This document shows positions 3,658 to 39,562 of a stretch of 64,000 bases of DNA, piece after piece. The position numbers and the translations under genes were made by a program. The notes under the pieces were generated by a model. It was not told where the DNA came from, made no database searches, and worked only from the letters and a program-made list of their open reading frames with translations. This DNA is from an uncultured Candidatus Saccharibacteria bacterium (lineage in GTDB: Bacteria > Patescibacteriota > Minisyncoccia > Phycocordibacterales > JAACPR01), in the NCBI GenBank assembly GCA_964507955.1, contig CAZDRR010000001.1, forward strand, positions 344 to 64,343, given 5' to 3'. Position 1 is the stretch's first letter; every line of letters begins with the position of its first letter.

Positions 3658-4038
3658 ATGAATAAAGAATTCTGTATGTCGTGTGGCCACAAAAATCTCT
3701 TTGAGATTAATAGGCCGAAATTCTGTGCTGGATGTGGATCGCCATTGAATACAAGTTTGGCGTCCATTACTAAAAGTAATTCTCCTTCCAAACAATCGTC
3801 TGATGATGAAGACTCTTTGGAAGAATTCGATTTGGAAAGTATTGATATCAATGCTATGCGCAATGGTATTCAGTTTGAAGGATTAGGTCGCAAAGTTTCT
3901 TTGGATGATCTGTGGCGTTCTCCAGCACCAAGCGATGGCACCCGCCGTCCACCAGCAAAAGGACCAGAAGGCAAGGAATTGCTGAAAGTCGTGCAAACAG
4001 AATGCGGTCCATCCAAATCAAGAGATATTGATGAGTAA
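3658..4038 (+). CDS. zinc-ribbon protein (CxxC...CxxC) with acidic/Ser-rich tail
   Basis: N-terminal CMSCGH...CAGCGSP four-Cys ribbon; low-complexity C-terminus. Confidence 0.45.
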   Translation: MNKEFCMSCGHKNLFEINRPKFCAGCGSPLNTSLASITKSNSPSKQSSDDEDSLEEFDLESIDINAMRNGIQFEGLGRKVSLDDLWRSPAPSDGTRRPPAKGPEGKELLKVVQTECGPSKSRDIDE

Positions 4039-4711
4039 TTTCAAATTTGAAGATAAAATAGATGATATCAATGATTTGCTATCCCGATATAGGGCTAAAT
4101 GGCAATTGAATGCCATTGCGTGGATGGATTATGATGATGTGTGTCAAATAATCCGTCTTCATTTTTATAATAAATGGCATTTGTGGAATCAGGATATGCC
4201 ATTCAAACCTTGGGCGTCAATGGTAATATCCAACCAGATGAAAAATATCGGTAGGAACAATTATTCCAACTTTGCCAAACCTTGTTTGAAATGTCCGCAT
4301 TTTCTTGGCAATGATGGTTGTGGGTGGACTAAAAGTGGAGTTCAGGATGAGGAATGCCCAGCAATGAAAAAATGGAAAGCTAAAAAAGAAAAAGTATATA
4401 ACCTGAAATTACCCCTTCCAATAGAAGAAGGGATCTTTATCGGACAAACTCATAAAGATGATCATTTCGACTATTCTTCTTCTGTGGATAGGCTACACGC
4501 TTCCATCATGGCGAAATTGAATGACAAGCACAAAATTATTTATGAAATGATTTATATTCATGGTAATACTGATGAGGAAATTGCGGAAAGATTCAAATTT
4601 AAATCTGATCCATCCAAACGCAAGCGCACACGTTATAAGCAAATAGCAAATCTAAAAAAGAAATTTTACGAATTGGCTGCAAAAATTTTAGAAGAGGAGG
4701 ATATCATATGA
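4028..4711 (+). CDS. hypothetical Cys/His-rich protein, possibly a divergent sigma-like or DNA-binding regulator
   Basis: CLKCPHFLGNDGCGW...ECP cluster; C-terminal segment EEIAERFKFKSDPSKRKRTRYKQIANLKKKFYEL resembles a sigma-70 region-4 style HTH; weak. Confidence 0.3.
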   Translation: MMSNFKFEDKIDDINDLLSRYRAKWQLNAIAWMDYDDVCQIIRLHFYNKWHLWNQDMPFKPWASMVISNQMKNIGRNNYSNFAKPCLKCPHFLGNDGCGWTKSGVQDEECPAMKKWKAKKEKVYNLKLPLPIEEGIFIGQTHKDDHFDYSSSVDRLHASIMAKLNDKHKIIYEMIYIHGNTDEEIAERFKFKSDPSKRKRTRYKQIANLKKKFYELAAKILEEEDII

Positions 4712-5772
4712 ATGAGGAATTCCAATTAACGGATGAACAAAAAGCTCAAATTCTGGAAGAGTTCAAAAAAAATCCAGATTTAAGAACTGTTGTCCAAGCC
4801 GTTTTCAATAATCCTGCCATAGATGGCCGTAGTGTTCAAGGTAGGGCCGTAAGATCATTTTTGGCAGAACAAAATAGACCCTATAAAACATCTCTTTTTG
4901 AACGTGCGGATTATGTTGAATTCACTTCCGAACAGAAAGAGTTCATGATGAGCAATAATGTTGAGGCGGGAATGAATGCCTTGGAAGTTGCTCGTTTGAC
5001 TTTCAAAGATAATAACATCGCTTCTTTAAGCCTTAAACATAGGGCTGTTTCTGAATTCTTGACGAAATACCGTCCAGAGATATTGGACGAAAATACAATG
5101 CTTGCTACGGAAAAATGGATAGCCCCAAAAGCTTTGTCAAGAGCTATAAAAAAAGTAAATGATTTTACTGGTAGCGAATGGGATGAACTAACCATGCCTA
5201 CCAAAATAAAAAGAAACTGCGAAAAGCTTTTGATTTATTTAAGAAGCCCTAGATTTTGTAGTTTAATCAATCAATTCAATACTGTCGCGGACAGGGAATT
5301 GTTTGAAAGCGAATTTGTCAGAGTTGTTTGGGATAAGGCTGATTTGACAAACGATGAATTAAATCTATACATTACTGTTTGTGCGAACTATATACGACAA
5401 AAAAATATCCAGTCCAGATTGGATAAATTGAATGCTTTATTGGAAGATGCGGAAAATGAACGTGATATTACTCTTCGATTGACTGAAATCATCAAGGCAA
5501 CCAGCGAAGAATTGAACCAGTGTGAAAAACGTATTGAGTCAATGTTGAAAGATCTAAACGGAAGTCGCACCAACCGTTTAAAAGCTCAAGGGGAACAAAA
5601 CTCCAATATTTTAGCTCTCGTTCAAGCATTTCAAGATGCGGAAGAACGTAGTCGTATGCAAAAAATGGCACAAATGCAAAATAGTTTAATTGAAAAAGAG
5701 TCGAATCGTTTAGAATCTATGGATGAGTTCAAGGCCAGAATCCTTGGAATAACGAAACGAGAATTATTATGA
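4708..5772 (+). CDS. hypothetical protein with long C-terminal coiled coil
   Basis: 354 aa; SD GAGGAGG upstream; heptad-rich Q/E/K/L C-terminal half; start overlaps upstream stop. Confidence 0.4.
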   Translation: MNEEFQLTDEQKAQILEEFKKNPDLRTVVQAVFNNPAIDGRSVQGRAVRSFLAEQNRPYKTSLFERADYVEFTSEQKEFMMSNNVEAGMNALEVARLTFKDNNIASLSLKHRAVSEFLTKYRPEILDENTMLATEKWIAPKALSRAIKKVNDFTGSEWDELTMPTKIKRNCEKLLIYLRSPRFCSLINQFNTVADRELFESEFVRVVWDKADLTNDELNLYITVCANYIRQKNIQSRLDKLNALLEDAENERDITLRLTEIIKATSEELNQCEKRIESMLKDLNGSRTNRLKAQGEQNSNILALVQAFQDAEERSRMQKMAQMQNSLIEKESNRLESMDEFKARILGITKRELL

Positions 5773-6710
5773 GCAATGTTTGTTTGGAATGCGGCAAGGA
5801 TTTTCCTTCTTTAAGGGCTTTACATGGGCATCTTAAAGCTCACGAAACATGCATCGGGGATTATTATGTAAAAAATTTCCAAAGAAGGGATTTGCTCACA
5901 AAAGATCTTCTCCAATTCACTAATTATGATAAATATTTCAATGAAGATTTTTCTTCTTACGAGAATTATTTGAATTGGATTAGAACCGCTCCACAACAAA
6001 CAGTCAAGGAATATATTGTCAAAAAAGCTAAAACCAAATTTGTTGAAAAAAATATACGAAAAGCCCCTCCAGACCTTTATTATAAATTAGGCAAAATGGC
6101 TGGAGTAAATGAATTGAATGTCCATTTTGGCAATTACGAAAATTTTTTGTCGGAAATTGGATTGGAGAATCATTTTAATAAAATGCTTCCAGATGAATTT
6201 TGGGAAACGAACTGTGCGGATATTCCAATCTGGATTGATACCAGAGAACAAAACCCCATTCATTTCCACAATGGTTTTTTTCATAAATTGGATTTCGGGG
6301 ATTATACAACTAATGGTAAATTATATTCAAAAACATTCATAGATAGAAAGGCACAAGATGATTTTAGAGGAACATTTGGAAAAGGTATCGACAGGTTTAA
6401 GAAAGAAATGGATCGTTGTAAGGATTTTGGCTCTTACATGTTTGTTGTGGTCGAATCTAGCATCAATAAAATCGAAGAAGACAACCGATCTTCGCGATTT
6501 AAAAGTAATCTGGAATTTGCATGGCACAATGTCAGGGAATTGATGTTGGATTATCCAGATAATATACAGTTTATTTTCGCGCACTCCCGCGAGGGAGCTA
6601 AAAAGATCATTCCTAAAATTCTGTATTATGGTAGGGATTTATGGAATGTTGACCTGCAATTTTTCTTAACAAAACGAATTAATGAGTTGGCACAAAGGAA
6701 TTCAAAATGA
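5769..6710 (+). CDS. C2H2 zinc finger fused to ERCC4/XPF-type nuclease domain
   Basis: N-terminal CLECGKDFPSLRALHGHLKAH (C-x2-C-x12-H-x3-H); central WIDTRE...LDFGDY...IDRKAQDDF matching the ERCC4 signature (V/IDxRE, GDY, ERKxxxD); overlaps start of terminase gene. Confidence 0.5.
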   Translation: MSNVCLECGKDFPSLRALHGHLKAHETCIGDYYVKNFQRRDLLTKDLLQFTNYDKYFNEDFSSYENYLNWIRTAPQQTVKEYIVKKAKTKFVEKNIRKAPPDLYYKLGKMAGVNELNVHFGNYENFLSEIGLENHFNKMLPDEFWETNCADIPIWIDTREQNPIHFHNGFFHKLDFGDYTTNGKLYSKTFIDRKAQDDFRGTFGKGIDRFKKEMDRCKDFGSYMFVVVESSINKIEEDNRSSRFKSNLEFAWHNVRELMLDYPDNIQFIFAHSREGAKKIIPKILYYGRDLWNVDLQFFLTKRINELAQRNSK

Positions 6711-8577
6711 ACGCCTAGAGTTCTCATCCGCAGAGTTGGATAAAGAACTTGAAAAGTATGATGGCAAGCATATGTCGGAAGAAGATGCCAAATATTGGCT
6801 ATATCGTTTCTTGCGCAATAATGTAACTTATTCTGCCGAACTGTTCTTGGGCGTTAAATTATTCCCGTTCCAATCCATGGCAATCAAAGGAATGTTGATT
6901 TCCGATTATTCCATGTTTGTTTTTTCCCGTGGTATGTCCAAGACTTATTCTACGGCTATTTATATTTTAATGGAGTGTTTGCTTCACCCGAAAGCCAATA
7001 TTGGCGTTATCGCGGGATCATTCCGTCAGGCGAAGATGATTTTCCTAAAAATGGAAGATATTTTATCGAAACCAGAAGCAAAATTAGCTAGAGATTGTGG
7101 TTTCAAAATCACAAAAGGAACAGACATGTGGACTTTGGAACTAGGTAATAGTAAGGCTATTGCTTTACCTTTGGCTAATGGAGAACGTCTTCGTGGTTTC
7201 CGTTTTAATAGGATCGTTCTTGACGAGTTCATCACTATTCCAGAAAAGATCTTTACCGAAGTTATTCTTCCTTTCATTGGTGTTATCGAAAACCCTACGG
7301 AAAGAGAAGATTTGTATAATTTGGAAAGTCAGTTGATTGATGCGGGTGGAATGACGGAAAATGACCGTTATGTTTGGCCAAATAACAAATTAATCATTCT
7401 TTCTTCTCCCTCTTATAAATTTGAATACATGTATAAATTGTATAAAAAATATGAGGCTTTAATTTTTGGAGAGGACGCTTCTCAAGAGGATGATGATGAA
7501 GATACTGTGGATAATGCTTATCGGCTTATCATGCAATTAAGTTATGAGTGCGCTCCAGTAAGATTATATGACCAAAACTTGCTCAAGCAAGCTAAAGCAA
7601 CAATGTCCGAAATGCAATATGCAAGAGAGTTCGGGGCGCAGTTTGTTGATGAAAGTGATGGTTATTATAGATTGTCTAAAATGTCTGCCTGCACGATTCC
7701 AGAAGGGGAAAAACCTCATGTGGAAATTGTAGGCAATCCAAAAGATGAATATACTCTTTCTTTTGACCCTAACTGGGCTGGAAATAGCAGCGCCGACCAT
7801 TTCGCAATGCATGTTTTCAAGCTTTTAAGAGATGAACAAAAAGCCGTTCTAGTTCATAGTTATGCTATAGCTGGAGTGGATTTGAAACTACATATGTTTT
7901 ATTTCTTATATCTATTGACTCACTTCAATATTGTTGGAATGTGTGGTGACTATAACGGTGGGCTTCAATTCATCAATTCCTGCAATGAAAGCGAAATCTT
8001 TAAAAAGGCAGGAATTAATATTAAATTAATAGAAGTAGATTTGGACAAGCCAGAAGTCTATCATGATGATCTTTTAGAAATGAAGAATCAATATAATTTG
8101 AAAGATCGTCGTATTTGTATCTTGCGCAAACCAACTTCCAATTGGATCAGAATTGGCAACGAAATGCTTCAAGCCGCAATTGATCATAAACACATCTTAT
8201 TCGCATCAAGGGCTGTGGAAGAGGATTTTGATATCCAAAGGAAACAACATTTGCCAATCGAACAATTAAAATGGGATCTTGGGGTGCCGAAATCATCTCC
8301 AGATAGTCTGAAAATTGATTTTCTTGATCACCAAAAAACAATTATTGAATTAACAAAAACCGAATGTGCGAATATCGAAGTTGTCTCCAATCCTCAAGGT
8401 AGCCAATCTTTCCAATTGCCTCAAAATTTAAAAAGACAAACTGGACCTAATCGCGCCCGCAAGGACTCTTATTCAGCATTGGTCTTGGGTAACTGGTTCA
8501 ATAAGGTATTCTTTGATATGGGTAAGGTCAAGGCAGAAAAGCCACCAACAGCAACGTTTATTCCATTTACAATCTGA
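6682..8577 (+). CDS. terminase large subunit
   Basis: 631 aa; Walker A-like FSRGMSKTYS, Walker B IVLDEF, C-terminal acidic nuclease-like region; position before portal-size gene. Confidence 0.8.
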   Translation: MSWHKGIQNERLEFSSAELDKELEKYDGKHMSEEDAKYWLYRFLRNNVTYSAELFLGVKLFPFQSMAIKGMLISDYSMFVFSRGMSKTYSTAIYILMECLLHPKANIGVIAGSFRQAKMIFLKMEDILSKPEAKLARDCGFKITKGTDMWTLELGNSKAIALPLANGERLRGFRFNRIVLDEFITIPEKIFTEVILPFIGVIENPTEREDLYNLESQLIDAGGMTENDRYVWPNNKLIILSSPSYKFEYMYKLYKKYEALIFGEDASQEDDDEDTVDNAYRLIMQLSYECAPVRLYDQNLLKQAKATMSEMQYAREFGAQFVDESDGYYRLSKMSACTIPEGEKPHVEIVGNPKDEYTLSFDPNWAGNSSADHFAMHVFKLLRDEQKAVLVHSYAIAGVDLKLHMFYFLYLLTHFNIVGMCGDYNGGLQFINSCNESEIFKKAGINIKLIEVDLDKPEVYHDDLLEMKNQYNLKDRRICILRKPTSNWIRIGNEMLQAAIDHKHILFASRAVEEDFDIQRKQHLPIEQLKWDLGVPKSSPDSLKIDFLDHQKTIIELTKTECANIEVVSNPQGSQSFQLPQNLKRQTGPNRARKDSYSALVLGNWFNKVFFDMGKVKAEKPPTATFIPFTI

Positions 8578-8628: not shown

Positions 8629-10689
8629 ATGAACGACGGACAAAAAAGAGGCTATCAAAAACGATCTGATTATTGGAACAAGTTTCAGAAAAAAGATGTT
8701 TCCATAGAATCTTTTCTGACACCAACAACTACCTACGAACCAGAATTAATTGGTGAAAGTTTTTATCAGGCTTCGGCATCTACCACGTCGTCTGGTTCTT
8801 CCAATGCAAGCCGTAGCAATCGCATTCACAAATCTTCTACAAAGGATAGATTTAAAAATATTGCAGAGGGTCTTTTGCCATTCAATTATACTTCTGATTT
8901 GGTAAATGCGAGCGAAGCTATCGAGCTATGCCAAAAAGCTTACTTCAATATCCCTACTTATAGGGCTACGATAGATTTAATGGCTGAATTTGCTGATGCA
9001 GAACTCTATCTTGAAGGGGGTTCTGCAAATGCAAAAAAGTTCATTAATGCTTGGTGGAAGCGCATTCAAATACATAATTTGAAGGGGCAATTTTTCAGGG
9101 AATATTATCGTTCGGGAAATGTTTTCTTTTTTCGTTTTGACGGAAAATTTAAATCAAATCAATCCAAGAAGGTCATTGAAGCTTATGGAGCGACAAATGC
9201 CAGAGCAGGAGTCCCTGTGAAATATCTTTTGCTTAACCCAACTACAATCGGCACCAATTCTACCCTTTCTTTTGATAATAATTATTGTAAGATTCTTACT
9301 TCTTATGAAATTGCACGCTTGAAAAAACCTTTGACGGAACAAGAAAAAGAATTCTATGAAGCTTTACCTCCAGAAGTTAAACAATCTTTGCAAGCCTCCT
9401 CGCGAGTAGGAAACCATATCCAATTTCCATTGGATAAAAGCAGGTTACATGCTGTTTTCTTCAAAAAGCAAGACTATGAGCCTTTTTCAATTCCATTAGG
9501 TTTTTCTGTTCTTGATGATATCAACAAAAAACTGGAACTCAAGAAAATAGACCAAGCTATCGCGAGGACTATTGAAAACGTTATTCTGCTTGTTACAATG
9601 GGCGCGGAACCCGACAAAGGCGGAATCAATGCTGCGAATATGGCAGCAATGCAAAATATTTTCAAAAATCAAAGCGTAGGTCGGGTTCTTGTGGCCGATT
9701 ATACAACAAAAGCGGACTTTATCATTCCTGACTTGAATAAAGTTTTAGGTAAAGAAAAATACGAAGTTCTGAATAAGGATATTGAAGAAGGTTTACAAAA
9801 TGTATTACTTGGCGAATCAAAGTATGCGGATACTCAACTTAAATTGCGCATTTTCATGCAACGTTTGGAAGAGGCTCGCGAGGTTTTCCTTGTAGAATTC
9901 CTACAACCAGAAATCAAGAGAATCTGCCTAAATCTTGGTATTAAAAATATTCCAGAAGCAAAATTCAAAACAACTGATACTTTGGACAATGCAGATTTGC
10001 AGAAATTAGTTATTAGAATGACTGAATTGGGTATTCTAACTCCAGAACAAGGAATCTCCACAATCAATACGGGAGCGTTTCCAAAGGCAGAAGAACTCGC
10101 ACCAGCACAAGAAAAATTCCTTTCGGAACGCGAATTAGGCTATTGGACTCCTTTGGTGAACAGCATTCAAATTCAACAACAGGAAGATCAATTGAAGCAA
10201 CAAGAGTTCGATAATCAATTGGCGCTGAAACAGCAAAAACTGAGCGAAAAAACCGCTGAAAATCAAGTCAAGATCGCCAAACAAGCGGCTACTCAAAAAC
10301 AAGCGAATAATAAAACCGCATCTGTTTCTGGACCTTCGGGCGGAAGACCAATGGGAACATCGAAAGCCGAACAATACTCGGCCAAGAATATTTCCCAAGC
10401 CGTGAAATTGATCAACGAATTCGAATTAAGAGCTTTTAGGGATTTTGCTTTGAAATTTGGGCTTGAACAACTTGAAGGATCGAAGCAAGAAACTGTGGAA
10501 AAAATCTGCGAACAAATCATTTCTTCTACAGAAATAGGTGAATGGGATGATGTTCTGGCCAGCGTTGTTGAAGATATATCAAACTTGGCTGAGAAAAAAA
10601 TCTCGGATAATGTTCTACAAATTGCTGAAAAACACCAATTGGATGATTTAGCTGCATCAATTTTATATCATTCAACAAAAATTGTGTAA
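8629..10689 (+). CDS. portal protein (putative)
   Basis: 686-aa ORF immediately downstream of terminase; size and position typical; C-terminal Q-rich coiled coil; no motif-level confirmation. Confidence 0.5.
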   Translation: MNDGQKRGYQKRSDYWNKFQKKDVSIESFLTPTTTYEPELIGESFYQASASTTSSGSSNASRSNRIHKSSTKDRFKNIAEGLLPFNYTSDLVNASEAIELCQKAYFNIPTYRATIDLMAEFADAELYLEGGSANAKKFINAWWKRIQIHNLKGQFFREYYRSGNVFFFRFDGKFKSNQSKKVIEAYGATNARAGVPVKYLLLNPTTIGTNSTLSFDNNYCKILTSYEIARLKKPLTEQEKEFYEALPPEVKQSLQASSRVGNHIQFPLDKSRLHAVFFKKQDYEPFSIPLGFSVLDDINKKLELKKIDQAIARTIENVILLVTMGAEPDKGGINAANMAAMQNIFKNQSVGRVLVADYTTKADFIIPDLNKVLGKEKYEVLNKDIEEGLQNVLLGESKYADTQLKLRIFMQRLEEAREVFLVEFLQPEIKRICLNLGIKNIPEAKFKTTDTLDNADLQKLVIRMTELGILTPEQGISTINTGAFPKAEELAPAQEKFLSERELGYWTPLVNSIQIQQQEDQLKQQEFDNQLALKQQKLSEKTAENQVKIAKQAATQKQANNKTASVSGPSGGRPMGTSKAEQYSAKNISQAVKLINEFELRAFRDFALKFGLEQLEGSKQETVEKICEQIISSTEIGEWDDVLASVVEDISNLAEKKISDNVLQIAEKHQLDDLAASILYHSTKIV

Positions 10690-10698
10690 GGAGAATAA

Positions 10699-12252
10699 AT
10701 GGATCTATCCGAGAACGTTCTTCACGCAAGTTTCAATGGCAGTATTCGTGCTGTGGACGAAGATGTTTTGTCCAAAATGGGAGTTTCCCAAGCATCTATC
10801 AACGAAAATGCGGCACCATTATTTCCCGAAGGATTTGACAAAAACAAAAACGTGGATGTTCTACCTGTTGTCTTTAATTTAGCTGTAGTTAATCAATTTA
10901 ATAAAAATGGAGATGGGATAGATGCAAAAACAGCTATGGCCGCTGTTAAACATTTTATCAACAAACCTATTAATGTTGAACATAAAAAGGACAAGATCGT
11001 TGGACATATTCTCAATGCTTCTTTTTCTTATGATGAACAGGATTTTAAAGATAATGATTTAGAAGCTTTTGCCTCTGAAACAAAACCTTTTTATATTACT
11101 GCCGCAGGAGTCATCTATCGAAAGATATTCCCAAAATTAGCGGCGGCAATCATTAAGGCGTCAGATGAAGAAAGTCCTGAGTATAAAAGTATTTGCACAA
11201 GTTGGGAGATTGCTTTCAAAGAGTTTTTGATGACTAAAGGATCTTCCATGTTGGAAGATTGCACTATCATTTCCGATCCAGATGAAATTGCCAAAGCTAA
11301 AAAATGCCATAAAGCTTTTGGTGGCAAAGGTGTTGATGAAAATGGAGTTATCATTAATAGATGGATTGTGGGAGAAACTTTACCGTTAGGTGCGGGCTTG
11401 ACATATGCTCCCGCCGCAAGTGTTGAAGGCGTTTTTGTCGTGGAAGATTTTGAAGAAGAAGATGATTTAGAAGAAACAGATGACGACGAAGAAGAAAATT
11501 CAGCAAATAATAAACAAAAAAATTCCCTTATAACTAAAAATGTTGTAAGGATTGGAAAATTCAAAGAAATTTTAAATATGGATAACGAACAATTCGATAA
11601 ATTCCTCCAAAAGTTAGAAGAGTCTGTGGCTTCTATCGGAACTGCTGGAGAAGGCCAAACCAAATCCGTAGGTTTGGTTGTTAAGGATGCTCTCGTTGAA
11701 TACAACAAGGTTTGGGAAAATAAAGTGGAAGCGGAAAAGCAATCTGCTGCTGCGGACAAACAAGCTTTGGCAAGTCTTCAAGAACAATTCCAAGCCGTGC
11801 AGTCCGAACTCGCGACTCTGAAACAAGAACAGGAAACTCAAGCGGCTGCATCCCTATTCAATCAACGCATGAACTTCATTGATGAAACTTATGTTTTAGG
11901 CGAAGATGAAATCAAGTTGGTAACAGAAGAACTTAAAGCCGTCGCTTCTACTGACGAAGCATTCGATGCTTTTAAAAACAAAATCGGCATCCTATTCGGT
12001 CATAAATCCAAGGCTTCTATCGCTGCAAACGAAAAAGCTATCGCTGATCGTATCGAAGAAGAAGTGGCAAAGAGAAGCAAGTCTCTTGAATCCAACGCTT
12101 CCACTACCGATAACAAGGAAGAAAATCAAGAAGATCTTGAAATCGAAGAAACTCAAGGATCTTCAATTCCAAACAATAACGAAGGAAATTCAAAACAAGA
12201 ATCTTTAATCGAAAAATTCCGCAAGAGTTTCGAAGTTAAAGTAGAAATCTAA
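10699..12252 (+). CDS. putative prohead protease/scaffolding protein
   Basis: 517 aa; AAGGAG SD; globular N-half then highly acidic segment (EDFEEEDDLEETDDDEEE) and long coiled coil, as in scaffold proteins; between portal and capsid genes. Confidence 0.35.
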   Translation: MDLSENVLHASFNGSIRAVDEDVLSKMGVSQASINENAAPLFPEGFDKNKNVDVLPVVFNLAVVNQFNKNGDGIDAKTAMAAVKHFINKPINVEHKKDKIVGHILNASFSYDEQDFKDNDLEAFASETKPFYITAAGVIYRKIFPKLAAAIIKASDEESPEYKSICTSWEIAFKEFLMTKGSSMLEDCTIISDPDEIAKAKKCHKAFGGKGVDENGVIINRWIVGETLPLGAGLTYAPAASVEGVFVVEDFEEEDDLEETDDDEEENSANNKQKNSLITKNVVRIGKFKEILNMDNEQFDKFLQKLEESVASIGTAGEGQTKSVGLVVKDALVEYNKVWENKVEAEKQSAAADKQALASLQEQFQAVQSELATLKQEQETQAAASLFNQRMNFIDETYVLGEDEIKLVTEELKAVASTDEAFDAFKNKIGILFGHKSKASIAANEKAIADRIEEEVAKRSKSLESNASTTDNKEENQEDLEIEETQGSSIPNNNEGNSKQESLIEKFRKSFEVKVEI

Positions 12253-12270
12253 TCTCAATAAACTACGACT

Positions 12271-12870
12271 ATGGCAAATACAATTACAAGAATGCTACCA
12301 TTCCGTCAGTATAATGAACAAGATGTTGTCAACATCTATGCTCTTGATGCTGCTACAGGGCAAGCTGGTTCTCTTGTTAAGGTAAGCAGTGCTGATCTTA
12401 ACGCAGAAACCATCGAACTCGTCAACTATGGCTTTACTAACCAAATGGGCCATGCTTCCTCCCAATATCCACAAAACCCACTAAAGGTTTCGAAAGTTAC
12501 CGCAACGGGTCAAGTAGCTTTGGGTATTCTTCTACGCGACGTTCGCACTGTAGATGAAAATGGTGAAAACCTTCTTTTCTATCCTCAGAAGAAAGACGAA
12601 CTTCAATGCGTTGTTTCTGGCGAAACAGTGCCTATCGCAACTCGCGGTCTGTTCATGTTCAACGTGGCAGGATTAGCGGGTGGTGTGGCACCAGCGATCA
12701 ACTCTTACGCTATTCCTGTGGGCGATGGCCTATTGACAGGCGTTGCTTCTCCAAGCGCAACCCAACTCCAATATTCTGTTGGCAAGTGGATTGCTACTGG
12801 TAGCCGTGCTTCCGTCTCCGATACGGACGCTTTCGAAGGTGCATATGCTCTGTTAAAACTTGAACTCTAA
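12271..12870 (+). CDS. hypothetical head protein (decoration/auxiliary capsid protein?)
   Basis: 199 aa; elevated GC and C-ending codon bias like the capsid gene; directly upstream of MCP. Confidence 0.3.
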   Translation: MANTITRMLPFRQYNEQDVVNIYALDAATGQAGSLVKVSSADLNAETIELVNYGFTNQMGHASSQYPQNPLKVSKVTATGQVALGILLRDVRTVDENGENLLFYPQKKDELQCVVSGETVPIATRGLFMFNVAGLAGGVAPAINSYAIPVGDGLLTGVASPSATQLQYSVGKWIATGSRASVSDTDAFEGAYALLKLEL

Positions 12871-12884
12871 TACCTTATAACTAG

Positions 12885-14021
12885 ATGAAAATTACCCTGA
12901 AAAAAACTGACGAGCAAGTTGCCTTGGTAAAGGCGATGGCAAGCAACAACCGTGATGAAGCTTATGAAGCGCAAGCTGCTGTAGCTACTCTGATGGGTCC
13001 AGTGCTTAATGAAGTGGTTAACAATGCTCCTACAGTGAGCAATGTTTTCACCACAATGTCTTTCAACGAAGACGACAATCCATCTCTTCCATTGGACTTG
13101 TTCCATGACATTACTGATGAAGATTTCATCACCGTTTACTCTCAACAAGTAGCGGGTGGTCTTCCATACAGCCAAGTGTTCCCTGCTCACAATGAATTGA
13201 AATTCACAACCTACAACCTTGATAGCGCGTTCGCTTTCGATAAGAAATACGCTCGCCGTTCCCGTTTGGACGTTGTTGGAAAGACATTCACCCGTATGGC
13301 GCAGGAAATCCTGTTGAAGCAAGAAAAAACCTCCTTCAATGTTTTGGCTTCCGCTCTTATCAACGCTCAAACCATCTCTACTGCGGGTGGTTCCAAGGCA
13401 AAGGGCAACCATATCATTGCAGCGACAACCGCTGATAGGTTCGTCTTGCATGATTTCAACCGTCTGATCACTCTTAGCAAGCGCATCAACGCTTCCTTCT
13501 CTAATGGAACTCCAGTTGGAGGTTCTAAGGTTGGGGTAACTGATTTGCTTGTATCTCCAGAAATGGTGCAAGAACTTCGTGCGATGGCTTACAATCCAAT
13601 CAACACATCCGAAGCTCCTTTTGGTTCGGCTCTTAAAGATTCGATTGCGGCTCCAGAAGCTCTTCGTATGCAACTCTATACCGCTGCTGGTCTTCCAGCG
13701 TTCTACGGCATCAACATTGTTGAAGTCCTTGAACTTGGTATCGGACAACGTTTCAACAAGATCTTTGATGCTCTTCTTACCGCCAATAGCGTATCGCTTT
13801 CTGGATGGTCTCAAACGGCTGACGAAATCTTGATTGGTATTGACCGCTCCCGCGATTCCTTGATTCGCCCTGTGGTTCAAGCCGAAGACGCTCCTTCGGA
13901 ATTCAATCTGATGGTGGATGATCAATTCGTTGGTCGCCAAAACAAGATTGGATATTACGGCAAGCTTGATGAAGGTCGTATGTGTATTGATGACCGCGCA
14001 TTAGTCGGTATCTACGTCTAA
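12885..14021 (+). CDS. major capsid protein (putative)
   Basis: 378 aa; highest GC/codon bias in the window; followed by a very strong terminator; canonical position after scaffold. Confidence 0.6.
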   Translation: MKITLKKTDEQVALVKAMASNNRDEAYEAQAAVATLMGPVLNEVVNNAPTVSNVFTTMSFNEDDNPSLPLDLFHDITDEDFITVYSQQVAGGLPYSQVFPAHNELKFTTYNLDSAFAFDKKYARRSRLDVVGKTFTRMAQEILLKQEKTSFNVLASALINAQTISTAGGSKAKGNHIIAATTADRFVLHDFNRLITLSKRINASFSNGTPVGGSKVGVTDLLVSPEMVQELRAMAYNPINTSEAPFGSALKDSIAAPEALRMQLYTAAGLPAFYGINIVEVLELGIGQRFNKIFDALLTANSVSLSGWSQTADEILIGIDRSRDSLIRPVVQAEDAPSEFNLMVDDQFVGRQNKIGYYGKLDEGRMCIDDRALVGIYV

Positions 14022-14037
14022 TAAACCATAACAACTA

Positions 14038-14069
14038 GGGTCGTCCCGCTGGGGCGACCCTTTTTTTTT
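14038..14069 (+). terminator. rho-independent terminator after capsid gene
   Basis: gggtcgtcccgctggggcgaccc hairpin plus T9 tract. Confidence 0.8.
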
Positions 14070-14103
14070 GTTTAAAATTTAGATTTTCTTTTTATCATAT
14101 AGT

Positions 14104-14544
14104 ATGAGCATTGATCCACAAAAATATCAAGAAGCTGAGAAAGAATATTCTCAAGAAGAACCAAAAAAAGATCTCGATTTATCAACCGTTGAAGAATTTG
14201 AAGTCGCGGATGGTAAAGATCGTGACGAAAAACAATTGGATGAACTGCGTAATTTGGAGGCTTTATTTGGAATCAAGGAGTCAAATCCTTATGGCACAAT
14301 GAATCGCCAAATTTTTAATGAAAAATTGGAAGAAATGACTGCTACTGATATGCAAAATCTTGCGATGAGAGTTGGAGTTCCCCCTTCTCGTAATAAAAAT
14401 GATTTACGCAGATTATTGATTAATTCTTTTAATGATTTTGTTAAAAGACATGATTACGGTGTAGCTTCTGCAATTAAACCAGTCATTAGTCCTTCTTCCC
14501 CTAACTATGAATCTGCTGTAAAGCTATTTAAGGAAGGCATTTAA
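14104..14544 (+). CDS. hypothetical protein (head completion region)
   Basis: 146-aa ORF, acidic N-terminus. Confidence 0.4.
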   Translation: MSIDPQKYQEAEKEYSQEEPKKDLDLSTVEEFEVADGKDRDEKQLDELRNLEALFGIKESNPYGTMNRQIFNEKLEEMTATDMQNLAMRVGVPPSRNKNDLRRLLINSFNDFVKRHDYGVASAIKPVISPSSPNYESAVKLFKEGI

Positions 14545-15029
14545 TGAACGATTTCGGTGATATCGCATATGACATTGTAAAATATGACTTTAAGGAAGAC
14601 GTTTCTCGTTTTCCTATCTCTTATATTTCTGGTTGGTTAGAAACTAATTTAGGAGAACTTAATGCGATAACACACGAAGAATTCTATATTAATGATAGTG
14701 GAAATATCGGGCCTAGTGGTTTAGCTCCAGTTGAAGAAAATATCTTTCGCAAATTATATACAATCCATTATTATAAAAAAGCTTCGCGAGAAGTTCTGAG
14801 AGGAATTGTCTGGAGCGATTCTTCCAGCGCGTCTGACTGGATTTCTATTAAAGAAGGAGACTCTTCCGTTCAAAGAACCAGTAAGAATTCCATTGCCAAA
14901 ACTCTTTCAGAAATGGCCACGAAAGAAGAAGAGGAATTAAAATTTCTTGTTTATTCTTATAATTCTGCCAAAGCCTCCCCTATTCAAGTTTTTGGAGAAG
15001 ACGCTTATTCTCCATTAATAACTAATTAA
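14544..15029 (+). CDS. hypothetical protein (head-tail connector region)
   Basis: 161 aa; AAGGAAGG SD; start overlaps previous stop. Confidence 0.4.
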   Translation: MNDFGDIAYDIVKYDFKEDVSRFPISYISGWLETNLGELNAITHEEFYINDSGNIGPSGLAPVEENIFRKLYTIHYYKKASREVLRGIVWSDSSSASDWISIKEGDSSVQRTSKNSIAKTLSEMATKEEEELKFLVYSYNSAKASPIQVFGEDAYSPLITN

Positions 15030-15031
15030 CA

Positions 15032-15478
15032 ATGCCTTCTCTTTTATCAGATGCCGAAAAAACAAGTGTTAATGCTATCTTGAGGGATTTGCATGATACC
15101 TTTGCGCAAGATATTGTCTTATATACAGAAATTAGAGAAGAGATTGTCGATGATAGTGACTATAATCCCCTTTATGGTCGAAAGAAAAATAATGGACAGA
15201 GTTCTTCATCTATTTCTTTTGCTAAAGAAACTGTTCAAGCTAGAGTCGCATATGTAAACGATCAAACTGATTTGCCTGACGCTTTAAGCAATCAATCAAA
15301 TATTTCTATTTCGAAAGGAATTGTTCGTTTGAAAATAAAAGAGGATATTTTTGAAAAAATAAAAAATGCAGCGAAGATTGAGATTGATGATCGGCTTTTT
15401 TCTTTAATTTCCGACGCGCAAATTGCGGGTCCATTCGGTTCTGAATTTTTTATTGTCTTTTTACAACGTGAAGGCTAA
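15032..15478 (+). CDS. hypothetical protein (head-tail joining region)
   Basis: 148-aa ORF. Confidence 0.4.
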   Translation: MPSLLSDAEKTSVNAILRDLHDTFAQDIVLYTEIREEIVDDSDYNPLYGRKKNNGQSSSSISFAKETVQARVAYVNDQTDLPDALSNQSNISISKGIVRLKIKEDIFEKIKNAAKIEIDDRLFSLISDAQIAGPFGSEFFIVFLQREG

Positions 15479-15560
15479 ATTTTTAAAAACGTCCACGTTC
15501 AATGTCACTGTTAATTCCAAACAGTTGATGAAAGAACTGTCTAATAGTAGGAGTCCGAGC

Positions 15561-16094
15561 ATGACGACTCTTATTACAGAACACGTTCGCCCTCGCGTTC
15601 TAGCGGCTCAAGAAGAAGCTATTCAACAATTTACTCTCCATCCTGTCACTGTGGAAATCCATGGAGGACCATACGCCTCTAATTCATCCAAATTGCTTGG
15701 AGGTATCGGAAACCTATTTTCCTTTATTGGGTTTGAATATGATGATGATCCTACCGAACCAATCTATAATATTCTACAAAGAGATATAAAATTGCATACA
15801 GTCCGCAGAGGGGCTGCTGGCAAATTTACAATCAAAATGGTATTACCAACAAAACAAGAAATTTTTGCGGAAACTCCTATGCCATGGGCCGCAGGACAAA
15901 GTTGGGCGGAAGGTATCGAAAAAGGTATTGCTGGTTTCGGCAAATACATGTATAATGATGAAATTGGATGGAAATCTTCAAGATCGGATAGTGGTTTGGA
16001 GGCTAAAGGAGATTTCCGAAGCGGTAAATTTAAAAATACGAAATATATTTCTGAAATCATCAGGGATTTTCATAAGAAAATAGGAATTAAATGA
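15561..16094 (+). CDS. hypothetical protein; start moved to internal ATG with AGGAG SD
   Basis: Track ORF 15423..16094 overlaps the previous gene by 56 nt; in-frame ATG at 15561 is preceded by taggag. Confidence 0.4.
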   Translation: MTTLITEHVRPRVLAAQEEAIQQFTLHPVTVEIHGGPYASNSSKLLGGIGNLFSFIGFEYDDDPTEPIYNILQRDIKLHTVRRGAAGKFTIKMVLPTKQEIFAETPMPWAAGQSWAEGIEKGIAGFGKYMYNDEIGWKSSRSDSGLEAKGDFRSGKFKNTKYISEIIRDFHKKIGIK

Positions 16095-16963
16095 ATACGC
16101 AATTTGATCACATCTTATTATCTAGTTTTTATTTATGGTTTGAACATGAATTGATCAGTTCGAACTCTAAGGCTTATGTCACAAATTTATCCAATGAATT
16201 CAAAAAAATCAATTTTACAGACTTGCCTTCTAATGTTTATGGATATCAAGGGATGTATAGGCAATTGGTTGCAGATAATTCCGTGGATGTTATTAATTCT
16301 GGCATTTTTATTAATGGAAATTTCATTTCTGGAGGAACTCCTAACATCTTTTTGGACTATGATAATGGAAGAGTTATCGTCCCAAAAGCTTCTGGTGCCT
16401 CATTAACTATTACCGCTAATTCTACGGTAAAAGAAATCAATACCTATATTGCGAATGATGATGATGAACATCTTTTGATTCACGGAGATTTTGTCGAACA
16501 AAACGCATCTCAACCATATTTCTATAATAAGGACAATCAACTTGATGAAAAAACGTATTTCTTACCTGCTTGTTTTATTTCTTTAACCAATTCTGAAAAC
16601 GAGGAATTTTCTTTTGGAGGAGAAGAGAATACAAAAACTCGTATTCATGTAACCGTTGTTACAAAGGACGATTATTTATTAGATTCTGTTCTATCGTATT
16701 TCAGAGATAGGGCGAGGGAAATGATTGTTCATATCCCATATGAACAATATCCTTATGGACGGTTCTCTTCTATTAAAAATTATCCATATAGTTATGAGGC
16801 TTTGAAAAATTCTCAAACCATTACTTCTGCCAACGTATCTTTGATTGATAAAGTCTCTTGTTCAAAGATCACCAATTCCGCTGTAAGAAAAGCGATCAAT
16901 AAAGACTTTTCGGTAGGATTTTTAGATTTTGATCTGGAAACTTATAGATTCCCTAGAATTTAA
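16091..16963 (+). CDS. hypothetical protein (tail completion/neck region)
   Basis: 290-aa ORF overlapping upstream stop. Confidence 0.4.
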   Translation: MNTQFDHILLSSFYLWFEHELISSNSKAYVTNLSNEFKKINFTDLPSNVYGYQGMYRQLVADNSVDVINSGIFINGNFISGGTPNIFLDYDNGRVIVPKASGASLTITANSTVKEINTYIANDDDEHLLIHGDFVEQNASQPYFYNKDNQLDEKTYFLPACFISLTNSENEEFSFGGEENTKTRIHVTVVTKDDYLLDSVLSYFRDRAREMIVHIPYEQYPYGRFSSIKNYPYSYEALKNSQTITSANVSLIDKVSCSKITNSAVRKAINKDFSVGFLDFDLETYRFPRI

Positions 16964-16995
16964 AAATGTGTAATTACAGGAAATAACTTACCATT

Positions 16996-18123
16996 ATGGC
17001 TAGAACAAGAATTATTTCTCAATCCAAAGCGGTGTATGCTTCTTCCACTGGCGCACCAACAACTCCTGATCAACTTCACAGAATTGATAAATTCTCTTTC
17101 GACGTTGATATCGCAGGCGCACGACAAGATGTTCGTGAATTCGGTCAATTAGCCCGTATCGCAACTGTTAGAGCGTCTGAATTAACTCCAAAAGTTTCCT
17201 TCGGTTATTATCTGACAGATGGTGAAAATGAAGGACATTTGGGTTTTAACATCAAAGGACTTACAGGATCAGTTGGAGGAATTGGATTGTCTGGGACAAG
17301 TCAATTTATTTCGGGTATTCTATCCGAAGACGCATCCAAAAAAGAAAAGAACATTTATGTAGTAACCGTAGGAGAAGGCGTTGATGCTTTTGATACGAAC
17401 TTCACTGGACAAAGAGCAAATCACTCTACCATCGGTTTCGGTAATGCGAACGTAACAAGTTATACAGCGAACTTTGCTGTCGGTGAAATCCCACGCGCAG
17501 ACGTTGAAATGGAATGCGGAAATATTATTTTCTATTCTGGATCTACTGGTATTAATCCTGCCGTTAATCGTCAAACTGCTGCATCTATTGGTGGCAGCTT
17601 TACTCTCCCTGCTCCTTCAACTGGAGACAGTGCTGTTGACGTATTAAAAGCGGGCGATGTTGCAGTAAGTTTCTCCGCTTCGTCTTTTGGTATTGGTGGA
17701 GCAAATTTCTCCAATATACATATTCAAAGCGCAAGTATTGAAGTTCCTCTTTCCCGCGCTCCAATCGAAAAACTCGGAAGCCAACTCCCATTTGCTCGCA
17801 CTTTGGAATTCCCAATTAATGTTACTTGCACAATCAATGGTATTGTCGATGACTTCACCACTGGAACACTGCAAACTCTATTGACTGGTTGCACAATCAG
17901 CGCAGGAACAGATATTGGAATTGTTGTTACTGATCGTTGTGGAACTAGCGCAAGAAAAGTTGTTTATCTATTGAAGAATGCCGTTCTCGATAGCCAAAAC
18001 TTCTCTATCGGCCTTGATGATAACGAAACAGTTGACTTAACATTCTCGGCGCAAATCGCGGGAACAACCACAACTACGGCTGGTGTGTTCATGTCGGGTT
18101 CTTCTACAACGACATTCGCGTAA
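16996..18123 (+). CDS. major tail (tube) protein, putative
   Basis: 375 aa; elevated GC/codon bias; Gly/Thr/Ser-rich beta-rich composition; followed by strong terminator; located before chaperone-like pair and tape measure. Confidence 0.45.
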   Translation: MARTRIISQSKAVYASSTGAPTTPDQLHRIDKFSFDVDIAGARQDVREFGQLARIATVRASELTPKVSFGYYLTDGENEGHLGFNIKGLTGSVGGIGLSGTSQFISGILSEDASKKEKNIYVVTVGEGVDAFDTNFTGQRANHSTIGFGNANVTSYTANFAVGEIPRADVEMECGNIIFYSGSTGINPAVNRQTAASIGGSFTLPAPSTGDSAVDVLKAGDVAVSFSASSFGIGGANFSNIHIQSASIEVPLSRAPIEKLGSQLPFARTLEFPINVTCTINGIVDDFTTGTLQTLLTGCTISAGTDIGIVVTDRCGTSARKVVYLLKNAVLDSQNFSIGLDDNETVDLTFSAQIAGTTTTTAGVFMSGSSTTTFA

Positions 18124-18142
18124 CCAAAATTGAATGATAATA

Positions 18143-18179
18143 CCGCTCCTCCTGTTTGGGGGGAGCGGTTTTTCTTTTT
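18143..18179 (+). terminator. rho-independent terminator after major tail gene
   Basis: ccgctcctcctgtttggggggagcgg hairpin plus tttttcttttt. Confidence 0.75.
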
Positions 18180-18194
18180 AGTGTAAAATGTAGT

Positions 18195-19118
18195 GTGTCA
18201 GTAACCCGTGTTCATTCTAGTAACTCTCAAATTTCTGTTAACGGAACCAGATTAACAGGCGTCTCACAATTTTCTTTCTCAAAAGAACAAGATGCTACTG
18301 ATTTAAGAGGTCTTGGCAGTTTTTATGTAGATGATCGAATTACACAATCTAATTCTAAAATAGAAACAACTATAGAATGGGCTTTAGGCAAAAACATTTC
18401 CGATCCATTTTTCGATATTCAACAAAGCGGACTTCTCTCTATAGAAAATTTCTTAATTGAAGCTAAAGATACTGTCGGAACTAATACTTTTAGTGGAGCT
18501 TATTTAACATCTTACGGTATCAATGCTTCCGTTGGGGATATCATCAAAGGCACCGTCAAATATGATGTGGATTCTCAAAATTGGAGTCCAAACGCCTTAT
18601 CTATTACCGATCAAACAAATGATTCCTGCCTTCCTTTTGTTCCAAGTAGAATAACAATTCATTCTACTGCCGAAGGGGGAGTTTCTTCCTCTGGAATGTC
18701 GATTCAATCCTTTAATTTTTCACTTCCTATTAATAGAAAGCCTGTTAAACGTGCTGGTAGTAAAAATGTTTCATTTAGATATCCAGAATTGCCGATTATT
18801 GGAGATATTTCGTTTTCTATTTTGAAAAATACCTTAACGGGTATGAAAGAAATCACGGTTTTGGAAAAAGGAACTATAGAAATCAATCTTGAAGACTGTT
18901 TAACTTCTGGAGAAAGAAATTTTCTTTTTCAAAATTGTAATTTGATTTCAATTAACGAATCTCTCAGTTTAGATGGGAATGCTTCTATTGATTTTGGTTA
19001 TAAATTTTCTTATGTTGATGTTTACGATACTCAAAATTATCTTCTTGATTCCAATAATTTAATTATGAAATCTTCTGAAGGTTATATTCTTCTTCCAACA
19101 TTAGTTTTTGCACCATGA
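18195..19118 (+). CDS. tail-associated hypothetical protein (start uncertain)
   Basis: Track start 18156 is a TTG inside the terminator stem; first plausible in-frame start is GTG 18195; no in-frame ATG nearby. Confidence 0.35.
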   Translation: MSVTRVHSSNSQISVNGTRLTGVSQFSFSKEQDATDLRGLGSFYVDDRITQSNSKIETTIEWALGKNISDPFFDIQQSGLLSIENFLIEAKDTVGTNTFSGAYLTSYGINASVGDIIKGTVKYDVDSQNWSPNALSITDQTNDSCLPFVPSRITIHSTAEGGVSSSGMSIQSFNFSLPINRKPVKRAGSKNVSFRYPELPIIGDISFSILKNTLTGMKEITVLEKGTIEINLEDCLTSGERNFLFQNCNLISINESLSLDGNASIDFGYKFSYVDVYDTQNYLLDSNNLIMKSSEGYILLPTLVFAP

Positions 19119-19567
19119 AAGTATATTCCCAACAAAATCTTCATAGTGATTTCACGGCTAATTTAGAGTTTACAATCAATTCTCCTTCAGAAATTTTTGC
19201 TTTCTCTGTCGGTCTTGGCACGGGCGAAGGGTTTTTCCAAACAGGATTTTCTTTTTCTGGCTATAATGGTTATTTATTTGATCAAAGTGGAAATTTCTTT
19301 GGAGGATATCAAAGTGGCAAATCTTTTTCCATTCAAGCAAATGTTTTCGATGGGAATAGACTTAGTTATTTTTATAACGATACTCTTATTGCGAATAATA
19401 TTGCTGTAGCAACAGGATTGAATTGCTTTGAATTTAATAAAAATTCCGATGATTCAGTTCAAATTAGTTTTGCATCTATTAAACCGTCAAATTATCTAGG
19501 ATTTTTAAATGATGTTGATGGAATTTATCTTCTTTCTTCTGAAACTTTGTTCTTGAAGACAAATTAA
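19115..19567 (+). CDS. hypothetical tail protein
   Basis: 150 aa; ATGA overlap with upstream gene. Confidence 0.35.
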   Translation: MKVYSQQNLHSDFTANLEFTINSPSEIFAFSVGLGTGEGFFQTGFSFSGYNGYLFDQSGNFFGGYQSGKSFSIQANVFDGNRLSYFYNDTLIANNIAVATGLNCFEFNKNSDDSVQISFASIKPSNYLGFLNDVDGIYLLSSETLFLKTN

Positions 19568-19606
19568 TTGAAATATTCGTTTTTGCGCCTATAATTTATC
19601 ATAGAA

Positions 19607-20467
19607 ATGAAAGAGATCTACACTTTTATCGCAACAAGCAAGGTTGAAAAACAAGTGCCAATTATGAAAAAGGTTGGCAAGGAAAATGTCCAATCTACAA
19701 AATCTGTAATTGAAGACGTAAAAACCAGAATTGTCTTCGTCAAGCCTTCAATGTCCACGGTGGAAGCTGCCGAATTCTTTTACGGACAAAAATTTAATGA
19801 ATATATTAATGCTGGTTTCTTGACCAGAGCCATGTTGAATAAAAAGATGGGGGATATTGGTGGACTAGCATCTAAAATGACTCAAGAGGGTCTTCAAAAA
19901 CTGATTCTGGATAATATCAATGCAACACAACTTGTAGAATTTTATGGAGGTTCTAAAACCCTCAACGAAGAACAAACTAAATTGCTGGAACAAGCTAAAG
20001 AAAAAATCGTTTCGACAAGAACTGAAATTTTGGAATACGAACAAGCCATGCGTTCCCAATTCTCGCAAACAGCAGATACTAAAGCAGAACAAAAATTAAT
20101 TGAATGGCTTGTTTTCAACCAATCTTTTTATGAAGAAGAAGTTGATAATAAGAAACAACTTTTCCCATTGTTCGCTGGCGACTCCTTCGATGAAAAAAGA
20201 GCTTTATATTTGGAACTTTGCGAAGATATCTCAGATATCCAAGATCCAACTGTTTTAAAAATTAAAAACATTTTTGACCAATCTTTCTCTACTTTGGTAA
20301 GGGTAGCGAGCATTTGGTATAATAAAATTGCAGATACTCAGGAAACGATTGATAAAGCTTTGCAGGAAATGTTTGACGATACAGAAGTAAAAGTTGATAC
20401 ATTGACCTCTCCTGAACAAGCTCAAGATGAAACAGGAGCAACAATCGAAGCTTCTCAAGAGGGCTAA
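19607..20467 (+). CDS. putative tail assembly chaperone (G-like)
   Basis: 286 aa; second-to-last gene before tape measure; 41-nt overlap with next ORF in a different frame. Confidence 0.4.
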   Translation: MKEIYTFIATSKVEKQVPIMKKVGKENVQSTKSVIEDVKTRIVFVKPSMSTVEAAEFFYGQKFNEYINAGFLTRAMLNKKMGDIGGLASKMTQEGLQKLILDNINATQLVEFYGGSKTLNEEQTKLLEQAKEKIVSTRTEILEYEQAMRSQFSQTADTKAEQKLIEWLVFNQSFYEEEVDNKKQLFPLFAGDSFDEKRALYLELCEDISDIQDPTVLKIKNIFDQSFSTLVRVASIWYNKIADTQETIDKALQEMFDDTEVKVDTLTSPEQAQDETGATIEASQEG

Positions 20468-37186: not shown

Positions 37187-37190
37187 GTTC

Positions 37191-39523: not shown

Positions 39524-39562
39524 TTTGAAATAAGTGTAATTTCTTCTGACATATTGTAAAAG

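Follow-up and report, generated by a model that had tools for sequence, protein, structure and literature searches.

A zinc-finger ERCC4 nuclease in the terminase operon of an uncultured marine phage clade

Introduction

What is a nuclease of the XPF type doing directly in front of a phage terminase gene? The question is raised by a stretch of 64,000 nucleotides (nt) of contig CAZDRR010000001.1 (GenBank assembly GCA_964507955.1, positions 344 to 64,343 of the forward strand), referred to here as the window. The deposited record names an uncultured Candidatus Saccharibacteria bacterium; the DNA is that of a tailed phage and encodes, among other proteins, a 2,073-amino acid (aa) tape measure protein, a ribonucleotide reductase and a polymerase matching phrog_405. 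Near one end of the window a gene for a protein with a C2H2 zinc finger and an ERCC4 nuclease domain overlaps the gene for the large terminase subunit, TerL. ERCC4 nucleases are textbook archaeal and eukaryotic repair enzymes. An earlier, sequence-only reading had drawn attention to the gene as an unusual substitution, at a position where phages often carry a small terminase subunit (TerS) or an HNH nuclease.

We find that, in a large clade of uncultured marine phages, the nuclease gene belongs to the core of the terminase operon and is inherited vertically. The evidence for this, and the bearing of sequence, context and relatives on what the enzyme may do, are considered in turn.

The nuclease and its three parts

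The gene, the parts of its product and the gene that it overlaps are:

5769..6710, + strand: zinc-finger/ERCC4 nuclease gene, ATG start, 313 aa, stop codon included (open reading frame list)
5775..5846, + strand: C2H2 zinc finger, residues 3-26 (zf-C2H2_6, family profile against solved fingers, model)
5781-5783, 5790-5792, 5829-5831 and 5841-5843, + strand: predicted finger ligands Cys5, Cys8, His21 and His25, respectively
5847..6212, + strand: helical linker domain, residues 27-148, presumed DNA-binding module (all-helical in the AlphaFold model)
6213..6641, + strand: ERCC4 (XPF/Mus81-type) nuclease domain, residues 149-291 (profiles, motif alignment, model)
6237-6239, 6246-6248, 6300-6302, 6342-6350 and 6360-6362, + strand: catalytic motif, respectively D157 (followed by R159), E160, D178 within G177-D178-Y179, D192-R193-K194 and D198
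6682..6710, + strand: overlap of the nuclease-gene 3' end with the start of terL, 29 nt (open reading frame coordinates and sequence)
6682..8577, + strand: TerL, 631 aa (Pfam Terminase_6N, E 2.7e-9; phrog_2, E 3.4e-26)

The reading frame at 5769-6710 is listed exactly as the sequence-only reading described it. The product has three parts, an N-terminal C2H2 finger, a helical module and a C-terminal ERCC4 domain of the XPF/Mus81/Hef type. An AlphaFold model calculated with 24 homologues has a pLDDT of 93.2 and a pTM of 0.87, the latter suggesting one compact unit.

The finger reads C5-x2-C8-x3-F12-x5-L18-x2-H21-x3-H25, which is the full C-x2-C-x3-F-x5-L-x2-H-x3-H consensus; the earlier reading gave it as C-x2-C-x12-H-x3-H. 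Pfam zf-C2H2_6 matches the window protein with E 2.2e-5 and 24.8 bits, against a cutoff of 25 bits, the family profile matches solved C2H2 fingers (best E 2e-7) and a C2H2 model matches 48 of the 58 family members. The model places two short strands here, followed by a helix over residues 15-25.

The linker is the least conserved domain, with a mean identity of 25%. Its sole recurrent family match is Pfam HNH_repeat (PF18780, 'homing endonuclease associated repeat'), found in the linker of 11 of 24 members with a best E of 3.7e-5; the window's own copy falls short of E 1. Judged from these matches, the linker probably holds an HNH_repeat-like unit, which in our reading, and by eye, lies at about residues 98-135 (PPDLYYKLGKMAGV..FGNYENFLSEIGL). 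A helix-hairpin-helix (HhH) considered for the linker (L..MAGV....FG.Y) was dropped, as no HhH family matches there and HNH_repeat matches the same region in other members.

When the window sequence itself was compared with solved structures nothing significant appeared; solved C2H2 fingers and Hef/XPF were reached by family profiles only. The phrog_3490 profile, 'ERCC4-type nuclease', matches residues 151-288 at E 4.9e-9 over positions 8-165 of 175. Pfam ERCC4 (PF02732) gives 18.4 bits and E 0.0021 for the window protein, the gathering cutoff being 24 bits, and matches 53 of the 58 family members at E<=1, the best at 1.2e-11. A profile confined to the nuclease domain finds Hef (E 8.8e-6), Aeropyrum pernix XPF (E 9e-4) and human XPF (E 0.02). 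The motifs are I156-D157-T158-R159-E160, G177-D178-Y179 and I191-D192-R193-K194-A195-Q196-D197-D198-F199. In the family alignment DtRE, GDY, ERK and D align with DSRE, GDY, ERK and D of Hef, and the same motif is present in A. pernix and human XPF; at D192 the window has DRK where the family consensus has the canonical ERK. The proposed ERCC4 similarity is therefore upheld, with the GDY and ERK residues falling on the catalytic positions of Hef and XPF, and the domain has the ERCC4 alpha/beta fold with its restriction-endonuclease-like core. Beyond the core the model has only two helices. With regard to an (HhH)2 domain, no HhH family was found on the window protein or among the 25 best-represented families in scans of the members, and an HNH catalytic domain was matched neither in the window protein nor in family members.

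The 29-nt overlap with terL is real and mostly conserved in relatives. Residues W3, G6 and Q8 of TerL are at least 90% conserved across 12 homologues, and this conservation of the N-terminus supports both the terL start at 6682 and the overlap.

Size and conservation of the family

How widespread is such a protein? A protein collection clustered at 90% identity contains 581 homologues at E<=1e-3, and in it there is a 100% identical protein (P0001) from a 138,977-bp contig. The homologues are mostly of 300-317 aa, many derive from marine surveys and almost none is annotated. An exhaustive profile search of 1.84 billion cluster representatives returned 2,958 proteins at E<=1e-3, of which 408, representatives of 50%-identity clusters, reach E<=1e-30; the profile matches end to end in almost all of the best 150. 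The family occurs in TARA and many further marine data sets.

In an alignment of 58 members, which reaches down to 26-30% identity, C5, D157, R159, E160, D178, K194, D198, R209, E213 and D295 are invariant and C8, H21, H25, G177, Y179, R193 and E229 are at least 90% conserved. Such conservation of the motifs is far beyond chance. Full-length homologues in bacterial genomes were found only on contigs binned with a Flavobacteriaceae metagenome-assembled genome (MAG; loci L212 and L213) and a Neomarinimicrobiota MAG (L214), a weak hint at the host or an artefact of binning.

Fixation in the terminase operon

From 3658 to 8577 the window carries a chain of overlapping genes, for a zinc ribbon, a sigma-like protein, a 354-aa protein, the nuclease and TerL. 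The genes on either side of the nuclease-terL pair are:

4028..4711, + strand: sigma-70/ECF-like protein (NCBIfam TIGR02937, E 3.7e-10; Pfam Sigma70_r2, E 2.1e-4; conserved synteny)
4708..5772, + strand: 354-aa all-helical protein, directly upstream of the nuclease gene with a 4-nt ATGA overlap
8629..10689, + strand: 686-aa protein, portal candidate by position (synteny, after TerL; without a family match)

Gene order is identical in four loci reached through individual homologues. All 80 IMG/VR loci found via the nuclease have the sigma-like gene, the gene for a protein of about 355 aa, the nuclease gene, terL and the gene for a protein of about 686 aa on one strand. Order and strand agree in 87 of 87 nuclease-anchored loci. 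Searches anchored on the nuclease carry an ascertainment bias, and to remove it searches anchored on TerL were used. Of the close TerL-anchored loci that extend 1 kb or more upstream, 65 of 65 have the nuclease gene, with a spacing to terL of -25 to +17 nt; in a broader TerL search extending down to 52% TerL identity, it is present in 41 of 41 loci with room for it. In total, every one of the 106 TerL-anchored loci with enough upstream sequence carries the gene.

The identity of each nuclease to the window copy tracks that of its TerL (Pearson r=0.94, 118 distinct loci), the mean divergence of the nuclease equals that of the portal candidate and the G+C content of the gene is like that of its neighbours. 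Universal presence, co-divergence with TerL and matching G+C together identify a core gene rather than a sporadic mobile element. A sporadic homing endonuclease was accordingly rejected, on the 106 of 106 loci and the correlation with TerL.

The arrangement is not uniformly tight. In a minority of more distant loci 170-1100 nt are inserted between the nuclease gene and terL. Two of these (L185, 3893-4981; L192, 3946-5004) have an open reading frame of about 355 aa at this point, whose product looks like a subtilisin-type protease from DTG, HGTH-like and GTSMA motifs recognised by eye and a hydrophobic C-terminus. L192 has a further 209-aa open reading frame between the upstream protein and the nuclease gene.

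The ends of many long metagenomic contigs, a few kb upstream of the operon, were considered as physical genome ends and set aside, as the end points vary by contig and some lie inside genes. Scans for promoters and terminators gave results at chance level.

The position before terL

Has the nuclease taken the place of TerS? The gene for the 354-aa protein always lies upstream of the nuclease gene in related loci. In its model (pLDDT 78) this protein is built of three small domains, all helical, with a long hairpin of helices over residues 215-346. It has no significant match in PDB, Pfam, PHROG or NCBIfam, with profiles or structures, and hhalign comparisons with Slash_31 and with the 294-aa upstream protein of a Staphylococcus SPbeta-like phage showed no homology. 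Similarity to a TerS family or fold was found neither for the nuclease nor for the 354-aa protein. By position only, the latter is a candidate small terminase.

Comparison with cultured phages is informative in this respect. The closest cultured relatives of TerL are the YonF-type terminases of SPbeta. Phages of the SPbeta type have a YonG-like protein of 274-299 aa directly before TerL, annotated 'putative small terminase' in phage Kirov, and no nuclease between the two. After TerL, c-st and Kirov have a YonE homologue or an annotated portal, and it is because portals follow TerL in these related phages that the 686-aa protein is a portal candidate.

One cultured phage does have a nuclease in the same place. 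In Bacillus phage Slash (L225, 3321-3896) a gene for an HNH_3 endonuclease (Pfam E 9e-15) lies between that of a 289-aa protein and terL, with a 13-nt terL overlap. The sister phage Stahl (L230) is without an HNH gene at this position, and because of that absence the Slash gene looks like a sporadic, homing-type insertion and not like a packaging nuclease. The difference between the two phages shows that the junction before terL is an insertion site for nuclease genes. The earlier idea of a substitution thus needs qualification; TerS does not seem to be replaced, given the helical protein of about 355 aa upstream, and an HNH gene does occur in the same slot in Slash, yet sporadically.

Could the nuclease then be a site-specific endonuclease of the homing type that has become fixed between the terminase genes, either domesticated or retained as a weapon against the genomes of competing relatives in co-infection? 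A nuclease joined to a finger and a homing-endonuclease-associated repeat resembles the modular homing endonucleases, and PD-(D/E)XK homing endonucleases exist. The slot accepts an HNH insertion in Slash, not in Stahl, and a relative of the window has a LAGLIDADG intein in terL. Against this, the gene is universal among the TerL-anchored loci with room for it (106 of 106), has diverged together with TerL (r=0.94) and has the composition of its neighbours, and its catalytic residues are invariant down to about 30% identity, which would be unexpected for a selfish element with no empty sites left. We regard this reading as quite improbable.

The intein is itself worth recording. The terL of this relative (L006, 1150-4383) has 1,077 codons with precomputed Pfam matches to Intein_splicing and LAGLIDADG_3, which indicates that this large terminase contains an intein with a homing endonuclease.

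The main rival to the function proposed below is the formation of genome ends: as an accessory of the terminase, the nuclease would recognise a cos- or pac-like site with its finger and helical module and, together with TerL, nick or cut there by its ERCC4 domain. It would act like the HNH proteins of many cos phages, such as HK97 gp74, with an unrelated catalytic domain. There is good documentation of phage HNH endonucleases that are encoded beside cos sites and terminase genes and frequently bear additional zinc-binding domains (PMC3592412; PMC9410871), and this partnership of HNH proteins and terminases favours the idea, as do the placing of the gene between the TerS candidate and TerL, usually overlapping terL, the presence of DNA-binding modules of the sequence-reading kind and the HNH gene in exactly the same slot in Slash. 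The Slash gene is missing in Stahl, so that this precedent looks like a mobile insertion, and the characterised ERCC4-family enzymes are all structure-specific.

TerL also has a bearing. Its invariant residues are R83, G84, S86 and K87 of the Walker A motif, D181-E182, D362, D423 and D595. From the alignment, D362, D423 and D595 are the putative nuclease aspartates of TerL itself; D362 lies opposite the 'ATLDCS' segment of T4 gp17, where the alignment is weak. With these candidate residues kept, TerL has no obvious need of an outside cutter, and this too counts against an end-forming nuclease. On this evidence we judge the end-forming role unlikely, if well worth keeping in view.

Proposed function

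We tentatively favour a different role, to which we give somewhat less than an even chance. By analogy with T4 endonuclease VII, the nuclease would debranch recombination-derived phage DNA before or during packaging. A part in concatemer processing or packaging, put forward in the earlier reading, is thus plausible. In T4 and T7, branched DNA blocks packaging, which therefore requires a junction-cutting enzyme that clears the branches. Made together with the terminase, late in infection, the window enzyme would be a dimeric, metal-dependent endonuclease that recognises DNA shape, like its XPF-family relatives, and would cut the forks, flaps and four-way junctions arising from UvsX-type recombination-dependent replication. 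DNA freed of branches could then be taken into the capsid by the terminase. As its anchor on duplex DNA, the enzyme would use the finger and helical module in place of the (HhH)2 domain found in canonical XPF enzymes.

Debranching is favoured for four reasons. All ERCC4-family enzymes characterised to our knowledge are structure-specific. The closest relatives in phages are encoded within recombination modules. The window phage has a gene for a UvsX-like recombinase (53203-54363), and no canonical resolvase, whether of the RuvC, RusA, endonuclease VII or endonuclease I type, was found among the scanned window open reading frames of at least 120 aa. Lastly, TerL retains its candidate nuclease aspartates.

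Several considerations weigh on the other side. A finger combined with a homing-endonuclease-type repeat is more typical of sequence-specific than of structure-specific nucleases, and the enzyme lacks the (HhH)2 domain that follows the nuclease domain in XPF, Mus81 and Hef, a trait of these canonical enzymes rather than of ERCC4 domains as such. In some relatives terL is separated from the nuclease gene by an unrelated gene, which shows that close translational coupling with TerL is inessential, and position in the operon signifies co-inheritance and probable co-expression, which is no proof of a physical or functional link to packaging. In addition, the window displays 64 kb of a genome of about 139 kb and another resolvase may lie outside it.

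Might the enzyme instead serve recombination or repair in general, its position among the packaging genes meaning late expression only? Stand-alone relatives are found in recombination/replication modules, the ERCC4 gene of haloarchaeal tailed viruses is far from the terminase and magroviruses list ERCC4 among their replication genes (PMC10160649). In the present clade, by contrast, adjacency to terL is kept throughout with the replication module about 45 kb away, and the additional domains at the N-terminus point to a novel way of recruiting the substrate. A general role is improbable on these grounds.

The substrate need not be DNA at all. EP364R, an ERCC4-domain protein of African swine fever virus, reportedly acts against host defence by hydrolysis, and the viral matches by fold include EP364R-like proteins from giant viruses; the window nuclease might similarly hydrolyse signalling nucleotides or another phosphodiester as an anti-defence measure. 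The DNA-binding modules (finger and HNH_repeat-like unit), the full XPF nuclease motif and the location in a packaging operon speak against this, with no defence or anti-defence context seen, and we attach hardly any credence to it.

A stronger claim than debranching as such would be that the nuclease is an obligatory third packaging component, brought to the terminase, the portal or the DNA by way of its finger and helical module, and that it makes ends or debranches at the motor. We consider this possible but, on balance, doubtful. If true, viral genome packaging would have its first example of a coupled XPF/Mus81-type nuclease, a non-homologous counterpart both of the terminase-associated HNH proteins and of T4 endonuclease VII. 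Activity at packaging would represent a third, unrelated way to deliver unbranched, correctly ended DNA, the known ways being HNH helpers and resolvases of the endonuclease VII and I types.

The phage genome in the window

Apart from the UvsX-like recombinase, the window encodes a DnaB-like helicase, a primase, a PD-(D/E)XK exonuclease and PhoH. One of the polymerase's matches in cultured phages has a specific annotation, DNA polymerase III alpha, in Chryseobacterium phage MA9V-3. The best deposited-phage matches of TerL and of the polymerase have identities of about 25-30%, and the window phage has no close cultured relative. A second sigma-like gene accompanies that of the terminase operon:

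42553-43146, - strand: sigma-70/ECF-like gene (phrog_351 and phrog_36), in a leftward block of nucleotide-metabolism genes

The two sigma-like genes may encode stage-specific phage sigma factors.

The scanned open reading frames of the structural region (8629-21317 and 27558-35302) have no PHROG match, the tape measure protein, encoded between the two spans, being the exception; the virion proteins of the clade are essentially uncharted. An Rfam scan of the window gave no match and no tRNAs were found in it. Further features are:

54360-54773, + strand: small HNH/homing-endonuclease-like gene (phrog_559, E 3.8e-16) directly after the UvsX-like gene, probably a free-standing mobile endonuclease
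36053-42569, - strand, and 47004-52879, + strand: glycosyltransferase and nucleotide-sugar epimerase genes (phrog_2170, phrog_540, Glycos_transf_1, Glycos_transf_2), a sugar-modification set unusually large for a phage
1-600: G+C of 0.45, against about 0.35-0.39 over the next 11 kb

Comparison with known systems

A survey of 2012 gave the ERCC4 family as archaeal and eukaryotic only (PMC3424549). Archaeal Hef and XPF (PDB 1j22, 2bgw) and MUS81 share the nuclease fold and motif of the window protein; FANCM is a further family member. The window protein differs from the Hef/XPF/Mus81 enzymes in having neither (HhH)2 nor helicase domains, in carrying its DNA-binding modules, a C2H2 finger and helical repeat, at the N-terminus, and in belonging to a phage.

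Among viruses, tblastn found nothing at 1e-5 in 50,697 deposited phage genomes, and thus no relative from a cultured bacteriophage in that collection. At E<=1 the only matches, weak ones, were ERCC4 genes of haloarchaeal tailed viruses (HF1, HF2, HRTV and HCTV; E 0.2-0.8). Matches in a viral structure library cover the nuclease domain only, the best being a Halorubrum virus protein, followed by the giant-virus proteins already mentioned, and there is no full-length analogue among them. The haloarchaeal virus and magrovirus enzymes are viral too, but are stand-alone proteins of about 154 aa (the size of that of HRTV-10) from viruses of archaeal hosts, and are not encoded beside the terminase. 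In the literature searched, none of the ERCC4 proteins annotated in PHROGs, haloviruses, magroviruses and a Bacillus phage has been characterised.

The closest relatives of the nuclease domain are the phage nucleases of about 175 aa in phrog_3490, with about 30% identity over residues 151-287. Bacillota genomes carry relatives of this size (examples of 174-178 aa; phrog_3490 E 1e-46 and 5e-38). In nine of ten Bacillota loci from genomes and MAGs (L215-L224) a gene for a Sak4-like annealing protein adjoins the ERCC4 gene, Gam is present in five, and a primase/helicase lies downstream in seven of the nine; the tenth has an SSB-like gene and a primase/helicase. In the Sak4-type module a 184-aa protein of unknown function and the ERCC4 gene follow the Sak4-like gene in either order. 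These loci suggest an uncharacterised Sak4-ERCC4 recombination pair. An ERCC4-type nuclease has been annotated in a Bacillus phage (PMC10535572), and that of Bacillus phage vB_BteM-A9Y is a stand-alone example. The phrog_3490 proteins examined consist of the nuclease domain alone, have no finger and are found in recombination/replication modules (Sak4-like, Gam, SSB-like, primase), not in a terminase operon. The marine form, by comparison, has acquired 148 residues at its N-terminus and shifted to the terminase operon.

ERCC4 domains annotated in PHROGs, haloviruses, magroviruses and a Bacillus phage were already known; the unusual features of the present gene are its fusion and its location. 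What is new is the joining of a C2H2 finger and an HNH_repeat-like module to an ERCC4 domain, the fixation of the gene in the terminase operon and the size of the family. Hundreds of 50%-identity clusters make this a large, globally distributed family of ERCC4 proteins with a eukaryote-style finger. It offers a compact, probably homodimeric XPF-type enzyme with a different DNA anchor for structural and mechanistic comparison. For a clade with structural proteins lacking PHROG matches, it also offers a functional lead and a marker gene.

Two kinds of phage enzyme invite comparison in functional terms. As functional analogues we propose T4 endonuclease VII (gp49) and T7 endonuclease I (gp3); they have no relation in sequence or fold to the window nuclease and, unlike it, are encoded outside the terminase operon. 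The HNH proteins of the HK97 gp74 type and that of Slash resemble it in gene position, next to or overlapping terL, and often in possessing zinc-binding parts (PMC3592412). Their catalytic domains are unrelated to ERCC4, and hhalign of the window nuclease against the Slash HNH protein detected no similarity (probability 0.15%). Within its clade the ERCC4 gene is universal, in contrast to the sporadic HNH gene of Slash.

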